Positions 2,347 to 4,797 of a stretch of 64,000 bases of DNA are shown here, piece after piece. The number at the start of each line of letters is the position of its first letter. The first letter of the stretch is position 1. The DNA lies in the IMG/VR virus record IMGVR_UViG_3300030331_006142, positions 32,001 to 96,000 of that record; one strand, given 5' to 3'. The translations under genes were made by a program, and so were the position numbers. A model generated the notes under the pieces. It was not told where the DNA came from. It did no database searches and saw only the letters and a program-made list of their open reading frames with translations. The stretch comes from a virus.

Positions 2347-2391
2347 TAAATAGCCTTTAAGATAAGAAAAGTTGAAAGGAATGTCGGACTG
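2347..2391 (-). repeat. Decayed copy of tmRNA 3' end plus downstream promoter motif
   Basis: About 29/45 identical to 4461-4505, ungapped manual alignment. Confidence 0.65.
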
Positions 2392-3048
2392 TTATTTTTG
2401 TCCAATAGAATTTAATAATTCTGAATCTAGGTTCATCCAGTTTAGGCTCGTTGAAGTAAAGAAGTTTTCTATTCTGTCTGGTTTAACAGCCCAGCTTGAA
2501 TCTGGATGCCAATCTTCAACAAGTGAACAAGGGGCAATTTTTAAATTTGCCACTATATACATTGAATTCTCATCTAATCCTACGCTAATGTTACCTGCCT
2601 TAAGGGCACGGCGAGACTCTGTGTGAAGAAAGACCTTGAAAGCATTTACGCCATAGGTTGCTACGATTTGGGTTATTTTGTCTTCTTTTTTTGGATTCTT
2701 TTTAATTAAGGCTTCATAGGATGCGAATCCGTTATCCAGAACTCCGGTAGTAGTAAGTCCATTGTTTTTTAAAAAATTAAATCTTATATCTTTTTTACTA
2801 CCACCAAATGAAACTGAATGGAGTACACTTTTAACATCATTGCTTACATGCGTCCCCTGATTGGGCGTTTTTACAAATGTGCAATTATATTTTTTTTGCA
2901 TTGCAATCGATGCAGACCTCACACTTTTTTTGCATGAATCTAAGAAATTCGAGGCGATGGCCATCGTCAACTGGACATCCTCAGGGTCTCTCTTAGTGAA
3001 CTCCACTTCGTTTACAAATTCTCGCCAGTTTTCCATTATAAGCTTCAT
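2392..3048 (-). CDS. MKLIMENW-leader protein, unknown payload
   Basis: 218 aa ORF starting MKLIMENWREFVNE. Confidence 0.85.
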   Translation of the reverse strand: MKLIMENWREFVNEVEFTKRDPEDVQLTMAIASNFLDSCKKSVRSASIAMQKKYNCTFVKTPNQGTHVSNDVKSVLHSVSFGGSKKDIRFNFLKNNGLTTTGVLDNGFASYEALIKKNPKKEDKITQIVATYGVNAFKVFLHTESRRALKAGNISVGLDENSMYIVANLKIAPCSLVEDWHPDSSWAVKPDRIENFFTSTSLNWMNLDSELLNSIGQK

Positions 3049-3053
3049 AATAT

Positions 3054-3098
3054 TAAATAGTCTTCAAAATAAAAAAAGTTGGTGGAGGTGGCGGGAGT
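3054..3098 (-). repeat. Near-perfect copy of tmRNA 3' end plus downstream promoter motif
   Basis: 42/45 identical to 4461-4505; includes ACTCCCGCCACCTCCACCA. Confidence 0.95.
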
Positions 3099-3099
3099 A

Positions 3100-3585
3100 T
3101 TATTCAAACTTGATTGTGCGTACCCAGGCGTCATCTTCAGGTTTGGCATAGAGCGTGGAACCAAAGGCGTCGAGGATTTCAGATTTTTTCAAAGCAGGCA
3201 AGACTATCGGTTGTTTAATTTCACTGAATGCCATAACAATATGTGGTATATATTCTCTTAACTTGTTTTTGACTCTTCCTAAGCGCGGGGAATAATGACC
3301 TCGACCTGTCGTATTTCCATGGTCGAATGTGGACTCTATGCGGCCGGCAGCTTCAACGAAAGCCAAAATCTTAAGCTGTACTTCTTCTCGCATATCGGCA
3401 ACCTGGTCTATTTGTCCCATTCTGGCATAACCATGGACATCGGCCAGGCCAGCTGCAACGCGTTCCAATTTTTTGACAGGGTCTGATTTATCGATGGTTG
3501 AATGTACTGCGCTGACCGCAGTTGATAAAGGAGATTCTTTTAATAGTTTTCTCCAGTTTTCCATTATAAGCTTCATTTCAGACAT
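3100..3585 (-). CDS. MKLIMENW-leader protein, unknown payload
   Basis: MSEMKLIMENWRKLLKE; AAGGA RBS. Confidence 0.85.
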   Translation of the reverse strand: MSEMKLIMENWRKLLKESPLSTAVSAVHSTIDKSDPVKKLERVAAGLADVHGYARMGQIDQVADMREEVQLKILAFVEAAGRIESTFDHGNTTGRGHYSPRLGRVKNKLREYIPHIVMAFSEIKQPIVLPALKKSEILDAFGSTLYAKPEDDAWVRTIKFE

Positions 3586-3606
3586 AATAAAATTTCCTTA
3601 TAGTAA

Positions 3607-3651
3607 TAAGTAGTCTGCAAAATAAGAAAAGTTGGTGGGAGTGACGGAAGT
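3607..3651 (-). repeat. Decayed copy of tmRNA 3' end plus downstream promoter motif
   Basis: 39/45 identical to 4461-4505. Confidence 0.9.
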
Positions 3652-4031
3652 CAATTATTCTTCTTCTTGTAATCTTCAATAGCAGATTTTATGGCACCCT
3701 CTGCTAACACTGAGCAGTGAATTTTTACAGGGGGCAGTGCTAAGTGAGTTGCGATATCCTTATTTTTTATTTCTTTGGCTTCCTCAAGTGTTCTACCTTT
3801 TATCCATTCAGTTATCAAGGATGATGATGCTATGGCAGAACCACAGCCGTATGTTTTGAATTTTGCATCTTCAATTATACCATCATTATTTACTTTAATT
3901 TGAAGCTTCATAACATCCCCACAAGCTGGGGCCCCAACAATGCCTGTTCCTACCGAGTCGTCATTATTATCTAGAGACCCTACGTTTCTAGGGTTTTCAA
4001 AGTGGTCTATTACTTTTTTTGAATATGTCAT
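3651..4031 (-). CDS. iscU: Fe-S cluster scaffold IscU
   Basis: YSKKVIDHFENPRNVG, GAPACGDVM, GCGSAIASSS, LPPVKIHCS motifs. Confidence 0.97.
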   Translation of the reverse strand: MTYSKKVIDHFENPRNVGSLDNNDDSVGTGIVGAPACGDVMKLQIKVNNDGIIEDAKFKTYGCGSAIASSSLITEWIKGRTLEEAKEIKNKDIATHLALPPVKIHCSVLAEGAIKSAIEDYKKKNN

Positions 4032-4456
4032 GATTTTTTTTCAAATTTATTTTTATCTTGCCATTTATGAGACTCTTTGTCAATTTTTATTGGGCCGCCT
4101 TTGGCCCAGGTGTGGCAAGAACGCGCGGAGTGGCATTTAAAATGATGCATCCAACAATATCCAAGTTGACCATCTTTATCAAAAGTATCTCCGGGTAGGC
4201 ACTCCTTCATTCTTGGTGATATATCAAAAGCTACACAATTGCCACAGTTAGACTTCTTAGCAGCTTTTTCACTAGTTTTCCAATACTTACCTATCTTTTT
4301 CCAATAATCTCCAGGTTCATCTACGTTTAACGGTCCATAGTTGTACTCTTTTATTGTTGCATCTCTGTTTTTGGTGTTGAGGGCAAGGTCTTTTGTGGCA
4401 GGAGGACATATATAATCTTTTATAGATTTAACTATTCTTATTATTATTCTGCGCAT
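4028..4456 (-). CDS. Cys-cluster protein (CxxC...C...C), possible metal/Fe-S binding
   Basis: Start reassigned to 4456 (longer ORF overlaps tmRNA); CGNC...GYCWMHHFKCHSARSCHTW. Confidence 0.7.
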   Translation of the reverse strand: MRRIIIRIVKSIKDYICPPATKDLALNTKNRDATIKEYNYGPLNVDEPGDYWKKIGKYWKTSEKAAKKSNCGNCVAFDISPRMKECLPGDTFDKDGQLGYCWMHHFKCHSARSCHTWAKGGPIKIDKESHKWQDKNKFEKKS

Positions 4457-4486
4457 GTTATAAGTAGTCCTCAAAATAAGAAAAGT

Positions 4487-4797
4487 TGGTGGAGGTGGCG
4501 GGAGTCGAACCCGCGTCCAGAACATCTCAAATAATACGTCGTTCACAAGGTTAGTCTTGTTCTAGCACAAGACAGCTATTAAGTAGCAAATATATAGTTA
4601 TATAAATTAACAAATCCAGATGTTCGGTTAAGAAGGTATCTGGAAAACCTCCTCAAGAATTATGCGGCAAGCGCAAAATCCTCGAAATTTTCAACGTCAT
4701 CGTTTGCGTTTATAGTTTTGAGTGTTTTTACTGTGACCTCACTCACACAGCCTTGCACGTATTATTATCCTTACCCTGTCGAAACCTGGTCACCCCC
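4487..4797 (-). ncRNA. ssrA: tmRNA; tag peptide ANDDVENFEDFALAA* (4707 to 4660)
   Basis: 5' GGGGGTG pairs with CACCTCC-A-CCA 3' including G3.U wobble; T-arm GCGGG-TTCGACT-CCCGC; tag ends ALAA. Confidence 0.96.

Follow-up and report, generated by a model that had tools for sequence, protein, structure and literature searches.

Gene cassettes joined by copies of the tmRNA 3′ end in a marine T4-like phage, a probable variant of promoter early stem-loop shuffling

In the hyperplastic regions of T4-type phages, composite promoter/terminator repeats known as promoter early stem-loops (PeSLs) are sites at which homologous recombination inserts, deletes and swaps ORFans; in the available parts of the studies that describe them, made with T4-type coliphages and vibriophages, mini-circles were detected and less than 50 bp of homology was enough (PMC2839356, PMC4122927). 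Here, we describe an array of small genes in a viral DNA of 64,000 nucleotides (positions 32,001 to 96,000 of the IMG/VR record IMGVR_UViG_3300030331_006142; hereafter, the window), in which the genes are separated by copies of the 3′ end of a transfer-messenger RNA (tmRNA), a promoter-like motif and often the start of a shared protein leader. Because the PeSL papers describe the same logic, we read the array as PeSL-like in its working, that is, as a variant of the known modular shuffling of T4-type phages, with additional homology contributed by the tmRNA tail as a passenger, and we put the probability of this reading at roughly 0.6. It would extend the PeSL idea, of regulatory repeats that serve as recombination joints, from enteric T4-type phages to the abundant marine T4-like phages, with a joint of different build that combines part of an RNA gene with a late-type promoter and a protein leader.

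Two further systems invite comparison. Tandem islands at bacterial tmRNA and tRNA genes, formed via tyrosine integrases, were reportedly described by Williams in 2002 and 2003. As in such genomic islands, the copies found here are displaced 3′ ends that begin in the T-loop, have the same orientation and lie downstream of an intact gene; however, each unit amounts to one gene (0.3-1.4 kb) and carries no integrase, the genome is that of a lytic-type phage, the same trailer follows every copy, and one relative has the copies but no tmRNA gene. With integrons the locus shares the one-orientation array of single-gene cassettes and the recurring site between them, but an integrase and a folded attC-like site are both missing, promoters come with the individual cassettes, and breakpoints extend beyond one core. 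Literature on tmRNA-tail repeats in phages, or on the leader, was not found (supplementary files lay outside the search); the available part of the Melnitz paper deals with phage tmRNAs and ssrA fragments in prophages, and makes no mention there of such repeats.

The phage has a one-piece tmRNA gene, with the tag peptide ANDDVENFEDFALAA, at positions 4487-4797 of the window, on the minus strand (ARAGORN; Rfam RF00023, 128.4 bits, model positions 1-374, the full model). The last 18-19 nt of the tmRNA, from T-loop base 59 to the CCA, together with a T-rich trailer, ACTTTTCTTATTTTG, and a promoter-like motif, GACTACTTA, make up the reference joint (4461-4505, minus strand). An initial annotation of the window had proposed that these 45 nt recur three times, and ungapped comparison with the reference (4505 to 4461, minus strand) confirmed the repeats and their identities: copy 2 (3607-3651) matches at 39/45 positions (tmRNA part 15/19, trailer 24/26), copy 3 (3054-3098) at 42/45 (19/19 and 23/26) and copy 4 (2347-2391) at 29/45, all on the minus strand. 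As only 8/19 positions agree in the tmRNA-derived part of copy 4, as against 21/26 in its trailer and promoter, the tmRNA-like part is not demonstrably above chance and the trailer/promoter part alone is clearly homologous. A pattern for the 21-nt core gave three matches, when 0.00 were expected from 100 shuffles, and an independent repeat finder returned two families, the four-copy joint (D3) and a five-copy leader of 44 nt. No further copy of the joint was found elsewhere in the 130,653-base record, where a single extra match, with four mismatches and within a coding region, looks like chance. Divergence is greater in the copy closest to the tmRNA (15/19) than in its neighbour (19/19), and there is therefore no simple order of age or accretion along the array.

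The upstream open reading frames (ORFs) end at 3651, 3100 and 2392, that is, 0, 2 and 1 nt ahead of the 18-nt core, which confirms the proposed position next to a stop codon. Similarly, a gene whose product begins with MKLIMENW follows each of the three copies, as had been proposed, whereas the true tmRNA end is followed by a gene for a protein of 142 amino acids (aa) without this leader. MKLIMENW starts occur at 3576, 3048, 2327, 2073 and 1520 on the minus strand (five matches, when none was expected in shuffled sequence) and nowhere else in the record. Three of these five leader genes come after a repeat copy; leader genes 4 and 5 directly follow their neighbour, with no repeat between.

The record that holds the window (labelled G000) is estimated to be 72% complete and stops inside the T4-type major capsid gene, with a match to Gp23 (PF07068, 69.5 bits) at its end. 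A gp21-type prohead protease (PF03420) was detected in all five relatives searched; in the record itself PF03420 gave no match, but the control was silent too and the record breaks off within gp23. The relatives are of 175-193 kb. The sequencing runs that contain the stretch are labelled marine metagenomes and thus, given the Gp23 match at the record end and the gp21-type protease of the relatives, the phage is a marine T4-like myophage. Every gene in positions 1-9000 of the window lies on the minus strand. The locus, flanked on one side by a gene for a conserved protein of about 1000 aa and on the other by a PP-loop ATPase-like gene, is a hyperplastic (variable) region of small single genes split by a portable joint. 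A blastn search (“distant” setting) of window positions 500-5400 against 50,697 GenBank phage records returned no relative, just IscU-like and tmRNA-end pieces. The exact 19-nt tmRNA tail occurs in 111 IMG/VR stretches, mostly in unrelated tmRNA genes or as att-like copies on contigs of other kinds; among these stretches, however, is a set of large contigs with the same tmRNA and trailer as the window phage. Two of these relatives, G001 and G003, both complete, were fetched whole, and the locus region alone was taken from the others, giving 12 oriented regions.

In the 12 regions we counted 31 tails, of which 9 are true tmRNA ends and 22 are stand-alone copies, distributed over nine phages (regions G000-G004 and G007-G009). 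The stand-alone copies match the tail at 18/18 positions in 11 cases, at 17/18 in five and at fewer in six. All 22 have their left edge at tRNA-like position 59, which upholds, across the nine phages, the idea of a shared start in the T-loop; when 21 joints are aligned, the identity per column is about 50% or less to the left of base 59 and 90% or more to the right of it. A stop codon ends exactly at the tail edge in 16/22 copies and, by manual count, the true upstream ORF ends within 0-2 nt of the tail in 13/22. In the genomes scanned whole (G000, G001 and G003), every copy is confined to the same locus. G003, estimated to be 100% complete, has seven copies, including two perfect ones and three at 17/18, and no tmRNA gene was detected in it by Rfam or by whole-genome ARAGORN. 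Thus, neither the order of the copies in the window nor the array of G003 bears out the serial accretion at the tmRNA gene that had been suggested.

The tail and the elements beside it vary independently. Decayed tails lie beside an intact gene and promoter at window copies 2 (15/19) and 4 (8/19) and in G004 (15/18). Conversely, the tail is kept without any promoter between the IscU and IscA genes of G001 (position 6700), and with a sigma-70-like promoter in place of the late-type motif in G002 (9328), G003 (5395) and G008 (5153). In G008 and G014 the true tmRNA end leads directly into trailer, motif and leader gene. The tmRNA of G002 (positions 7531-8030 of L205) has a different T-arm and no encoded CCA, and in G003 two interrupted tail copies (5087-5170 and 7112-7190) are followed by the particular 3′ flank of this gene. 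There is thus a second type of joint, and tmRNA ends have either fed the array more than once or still recombine with it. One copy of the 22, at 7112 in G003, has a terminator-like hairpin of about 50 nt (with a perfect 12-bp stem) and a T run inserted within the tail. Separately, Rfam gives the tmRNA of G007 (about 4967-5420 of L209) a length of 454 nt, as compared with about 310 nt for the other phages; its T-loop is odd, and an insertion in it holds a 79-codon ORF.

Comparison of the relatives supports the view of the locus as a cassette array with tmRNA 3′-end joints, in that different payloads lie between the same repeats (G002/G003, G007/G014 and G000/G001); gene order is not identical among relatives, and the tmRNA-like part of the joint is conserved. 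G002 has a lipoprotein gene (182 aa), a gene with an MKHK leader (105 aa) and a leader gene (348 aa); G003 has the same three genes and two additional cassettes (97 aa and 220 aa) that lie exactly between joints. The shared pieces (G002 9322-10002 vs. G003 5389-6069; G002 9986-10412 vs. G003 7179-7607) are 87% and 91% identical in DNA, as compared with 67% for the flanking backbone. A 221-aa leader gene, 91% identical between G007 (7139-7819) and G014 (5517-6194), in a backbone of 67-73%, stands directly behind the tmRNA in G014, whereas three genes come between the two in G007. Finally, a block formed by the tmRNA, the 142-aa gene, the IscU gene and a tail is 89% identical between the window phage and G001, with surroundings at 65-69%; beyond the shared tail there is a leader gene in the window phage and the IscA gene in G001. 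Overall, shared cassettes are 87-91% identical and the backbone 65-74%.

The breakpoints of the high-identity blocks are spread over at least four places of a joint of roughly 90 nt: some coincide with the left edge of the tail, and others fall just behind ACTTTTCTT, at the ATG of the leader or at the end of the leader. Borders with the leader alone, overlapping stop and start codons and no tail are found between window genes 3 and 4, between genes 4 and 5, and in G007. This spread fits what recombination anywhere in a near-identical joint of 45-115 nt would produce, rather than one crossover core, and among the mechanisms put forward earlier it is unequal or homologous recombination, then named as a fallback, that fits best. 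Candidate deletion joints in four assembled-contig runs (X7, X9, X10 and X13), obtained on window positions 1-7000 at a likeness threshold of 88, were not counted, as such joints may come from other organisms or from repeats; six were listed (e.g., 1520->4487, 2327->3007 and 3809->2046), three of them between joint-repeats, with a shorter side of 26-34 nt. The loose contig ends at 4486/4487 are those of other contigs that share the tmRNA and then differ.

The anatomy of the joints, the cassette differences between relatives, the mosaic pattern of identity and the scattered breakpoints are observed, as is the lack of an integrase in the genomes searched; homologous recombination is the mechanism that we infer. 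The joint consists of the last 18 nt of the tmRNA (positions 59-76), the T-rich trailer of about 15 nt, ACTAYTTA and, mostly, leader DNA, and supplies about 45-115 nt of near-identical DNA, within which the phage's own short-homology recombination would swap, delete, insert and reorder the genes that lie between joints. The exchange would take place both within one genome and between co-infecting relatives, with no need for a dedicated recombinase. The founding promoter-leader unit would have been located directly behind the tmRNA gene, as it still is in G008 and G014, and it is because the founding copy sat there that the tmRNA tail would have joined the joint, as a passenger that lengthens the homology rather than as an attachment site. 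The decay of tails beside intact genes and promoters supports a passenger, as does the finding that 60 of 69 distinct leader-gene starts in IMG/VR have no tail (a tail lies within 90 nt upstream in the remaining nine).

The array resembles PeSLs in several ways. Here too, single genes of unknown function are flanked by short composite intergenic repeats, and these cluster in one variable part of a T4-like genome; the repeats delimit the insertions, deletions and replacements that distinguish G002 from G003, G007 from G014, and G000 from G001; a promoter comes with every cassette; and in neither case is a dedicated recombinase known. There are also differences. The promoter is of the late type, ACTAYTTA, and not a sigma-70 early promoter, although a few copies in relatives have TTGACA-N17-TATAAT; a stem-loop terminator is missing from the window copies; in its upstream half, the repeat is a copy of the final 18 nt of the tmRNA gene; and it usually continues into a shared leader of 14 codons. 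The array would therefore seem to work like PeSLs without being a PeSL by definition.

That the window joints are without the two defining parts of a PeSL, the early sigma-70 promoter and the stem-loop, is also one of several points that weigh against our reading. Homologous recombination alone fails to explain why unrelated upstream genes abut the tail so exactly. No direct recombination product was seen in the four runs compared with the window, which, like all 24 runs found, consist of assembled contigs. A recombinase could sit in the missing part of the 72%-complete record, but the complete relatives argue otherwise. Moreover, the tail is better kept than the trailer (at least 17/18 in 16/22 copies), it persists in G003, where there is no tmRNA gene to copy it from, and its distance to the motif is nearly fixed. 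Some function of the tail is possible, because a useless 18 nt should be lost from so compact a genome.

The last observations lend some weight to the alternative that the tail has a function of its own in each joint, as RNA or as DNA, and is selected for, with recombination as a by-product: a tmRNA-type processing or 3′-end signal, a C-rich, unstructured Rho loading site right behind the stop codon that insulates the cassettes, or a protein-binding site upstream of the promoter. The conservation of the tail in the tmRNA-less G003, its persistence without a promoter (G001 6700) or with a sigma-70-like one, its regular position directly behind a stop codon in a very compact genome and, in one copy of the 22, the hairpin and T run inside the tail of G003 7112, where a terminator would sit, would all agree with this. 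We nevertheless consider an independent function unlikely, if still worth keeping in mind, since decayed copies stand beside genes and promoters that are intact (window copies 2 and 4; G004), the tail is missing from 60 of the 69 leader-gene joints of other phages, the joint RNA appears unstructured (z = -0.35 and +0.59) and the frame of the tail relative to the upstream stop codon varies. Four specific roles were entertained and dropped. A hairpin between the tail and GGAG in the trailer is missing from window copies 2 and 3; a translational role (the tail reads LPPPPP in one frame) is unlikely because of the variable frame; a role as upstream element of one promoter type does not hold, as the tail occurs with two promoter types and with none; and the reverse complement of the tail was presumed to be like the Chi-type octamers of some Gammaproteobacteria, an idea that was considered and likewise abandoned.

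A related view, which we regard as doubtful, would make the tail the working core of an integrase-free “phage integron”, a docking site read by an unrecognised phage or host factor or used as an RNA or DNA end. On this view, equally doubtful, lytic T4-like phages would use the site to take up and rearrange a set of proteins destined for the capsid and for injection. The best hints in favour are the base-59 edge in 22/22 copies, the abutting stop codon in 16/22 and the conserved tail of the tmRNA-less G003.

The constant edge would also be expected of an integron- or att-like site-specific system with a T-loop-to-CCA core, served by an unrecognised phage or host recombinase (e.g., of the Xer type, or an island integrase). 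Integrases of tmRNA-targeting elements are said (Williams, in 2002) to cross over in the T-loop, and many unrelated IMG/VR contigs start their tmRNA 3′-end copies at this same edge, looking like attP or attR of temperate elements. In the available part of a study of cyanomyophages, it is also suggested that their tRNA genes may be substrates for site-specific recombination (PMC3037559). Nevertheless, we found no tyrosine recombinase (PF00589) in the 130.6-kb record, with a positive control in 14/14 genomes, nor in any of five relatives, four of which are 96-100% complete; the absence of an integrase already noted for the window thus extends to the record and to these relatives. The recombination enzymes sought were tyrosine recombinases and reverse transcriptases; serine recombinases and nucleases were not searched for genome-wide.

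The joints themselves do not resemble folded sites. Joint RNA folds no better than shuffled sequence (z = -0.35, +0.59 and -1.94), as is also the case for DNA of both strands of two joints (z = -0.34, -0.23, +1.27 and +1.80), and the repeat finder reported no inverted repeats at the window joints. Breakpoints at several positions, some of them inside the leader, borders with the leader alone, copies whose divergence does not track their distance from the tmRNA, and the array of G003, which has no tmRNA gene, argue further against such a system. A site-specific system therefore strikes us as improbable, and the integron-like, integrase-driven serial insertion that the initial annotation had favoured loses its support on the same grounds.

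Among the genes of T4-type phages are those of free-standing homing endonucleases with tRNA regions as their targets (SegB). A gene conversion driven by a phage nuclease, akin to intron-less homing, in which a cut at or near the tmRNA end is repaired from a co-infecting relative and neighbouring cassettes are copied in the process, would account for the higher identity of cassettes than of backbone between phages. This is very improbable, however, as an enzyme that cuts at the tail would cleave all copies of the array as well, and 0/9 proteins of the window locus match a nuclease family (Pfam and PHROGs; whole genomes were not searched for nucleases). Least credible of all is an RNA-templated capture, in which the tmRNA 3′ end, or a transcript that ends in it, primes or templates a cDNA for insertion: each copy corresponds precisely to the final 18 nt of the tRNA-like end, and retroviral primer-binding sites are also 18 nt, but the copies are in sense orientation and carry a promoter and trailer downstream that look untranscribed, and no reverse transcriptase (PF00078) was found above the family cut-off in the five relatives (one match, at 13.6 bits, lies below it), so that this earlier suggestion is left without support.

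A promoter-like motif accompanies every cassette. The motif ACTAYTTA is present in all three window copies and with 21 of the 31 tails of the relatives (true tmRNA ends included), and the joint alignment places it at a nearly fixed distance from the tail. In the whole of G000 it occurs 18 times on the minus (coding) strand and not once on the plus strand, mostly just upstream of ORFs (e.g., elsewhere in the window, at 49932, 56839, 22741 and 21448, minus strand), and in G001 it lies ahead of the tail sheath gene and of a baseplate wedge gene. ACTAYTTA is thus probably a late promoter of this clade, as judged by its distribution; it differs from the T4 late promoter motif. A consensus scan found no sigma-70-like site at the three window joints; by eye, sites resembling TTGACA/TTTACA-N17-TATAAT follow 3/22 copies in the relatives. 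No terminator-like site was found at the window joints on the minus strand.

The leader that is fused to most payloads has a consensus of 14 residues, MKLIMENW-x-x-[FY]-[LV]-x-E. The exact leader 24-mer was found in 75 IMG/VR stretches, and 89 distinct leader proteins fell into 65 clusters once 16 residues had been trimmed. Residues 1-8 were fixed by the search pattern; beyond it, F/Y is found at position 11 in 68/81 proteins, L/V/I at position 12 in 63/81 and E at position 14 in 57/81, and [LIVMF]-x-E ends at residues 13-17 in 67/81, when the mean for shuffled sequences is 12.5. The promoter-like motif lies within 50 nt upstream of 32 of the 69 distinct leader-gene starts.

A polymorphic locus for internal proteins (IPs) was reportedly described in T-even phages by Repoila et al. 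in 1994, and T4 delivers anti-restriction and host-takeover proteins together with its DNA. According to the available parts of two studies, the internal proteins of T4 are diverse, share a capsid targeting sequence of 10 residues and are cut by gp21 after a Glu (PMC3012670, PMC9026906), and residues 8 and 10 of the T4 leader govern processing (PMC9026906). The proteins described here are likewise unrelated apart from a short N-terminal leader that ends in hydrophobic-x-Glu, their genes lie in a variable locus, and the relatives encode a gp21-type protease; moreover, one payload may be an ADP-ribosyltransferase, as is Alt. The leader is longer than that of the T4 internal proteins IPI-III (14 residues as against 10), the arrays are larger, and the leader occurs in at least 75 IMG/VR stretches. 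By analogy, the leader is suggested to be a candidate capsid-targeting tag, and the payloads are probably late proteins, loaded into the capsid by the leader and trimmed by a gp21-type protease in the way of T4 internal proteins and Alt; because T4 internal proteins are likewise diverse, with a short leader and trimming by gp21 after Glu, injection of the payloads is also plausible. If so, the arrays would list effectors that are injected into marine hosts not yet cultured, with the leader as a ready tag in the search for more, and at least 65 unrelated protein families with one portable leader are a gene set worth testing.

The 304-aa product of leader gene 5 (606-1520, minus strand) has a C-terminal domain (about residues 111-290) that is weakly ADP-ribosyltransferase-like. 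Across 10 sequences, YRG, TSSW and AEV show little or no variation. A structural model, with a predicted local distance difference test score (pLDDT) of 70.8 and values below 50 for residues 1-91, was compared in VIA with pertussis S1 (Z 6.1, 120 residues aligned, root mean square deviation [rmsd] 4.2), Tpt1 (Z 6.2, 95 aligned, rmsd 3.4) and Vis (Z 5.8), and a Z of about 6 is in the middling range for this tool. Pfam gave no match for the protein, Foldseek nothing at E <= 0.001, and the Atlas structure rows had TM scores below 0.5. As a lead from the model, the protein could be an Alt-like injected ADP-ribosyltransferase.

Two other shared N-termini were observed that end, as does the MKLIMENW leader, in hydrophobic-x-Glu. 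MPKFY(R/G)QNKKRIDPRYFL-x-E is found in one or two paralogues just upstream of the tmRNA (window 4798-5277, minus strand; G001, G002 and G007), and MK(I/V)TK..L...IKEE on small genes of the window (about 22741 and 21448), G002 and G003.

In the window, the array and its surroundings are made up as follows, all on the minus strand. A 159-aa gene (4798-5277; MPKFYRQNKK...), whose N-terminus is common to paralogues in the relatives, has a stop codon that touches the 5′ end of the tmRNA. Behind the tmRNA come the Cys-rich 142-aa gene without a leader or a family match (4028-4456) and a gene for an IscU/NifU-like Fe-S scaffold (3651-4031; Pfam NifU_N, E = 9.5e-54; PHROG 8429), whose TGA stop adjoins repeat copy 2. 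Leader genes 1 (161 aa, MSE-MKLIMENW...; 3100-3585) and 2 (218 aa; 2392-3048) have no family match, and leader gene 3 (85 aa; 2070-2327) has two faint PHROG matches of unknown function. The start of leader gene 4 (182 aa; 1525-2073) overlaps the stop codon of gene 3 (ATGA), and leader gene 5 follows. In searches of nine locus proteins against Pfam and PHROGs, none of the five leader proteins was assigned to a family.

IscU and/or IscA genes are the usual first neighbours of the tmRNA gene (window 3651-4456, minus strand; G001, G004, G005, G008 and G014), and their presence and order differ among the phages; three relatives have them downstream of a sigma-70-like promoter, whose start immediately follows either the CCA or a tail copy. 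Lastly, the window phage has a single tRNA cluster of the Lys-Gly-Pro-(Ile)-Leu type (40232-40556), of which G001 has two near-duplicates, at 1306-1922 and 8186-8975, about 7 kb apart.

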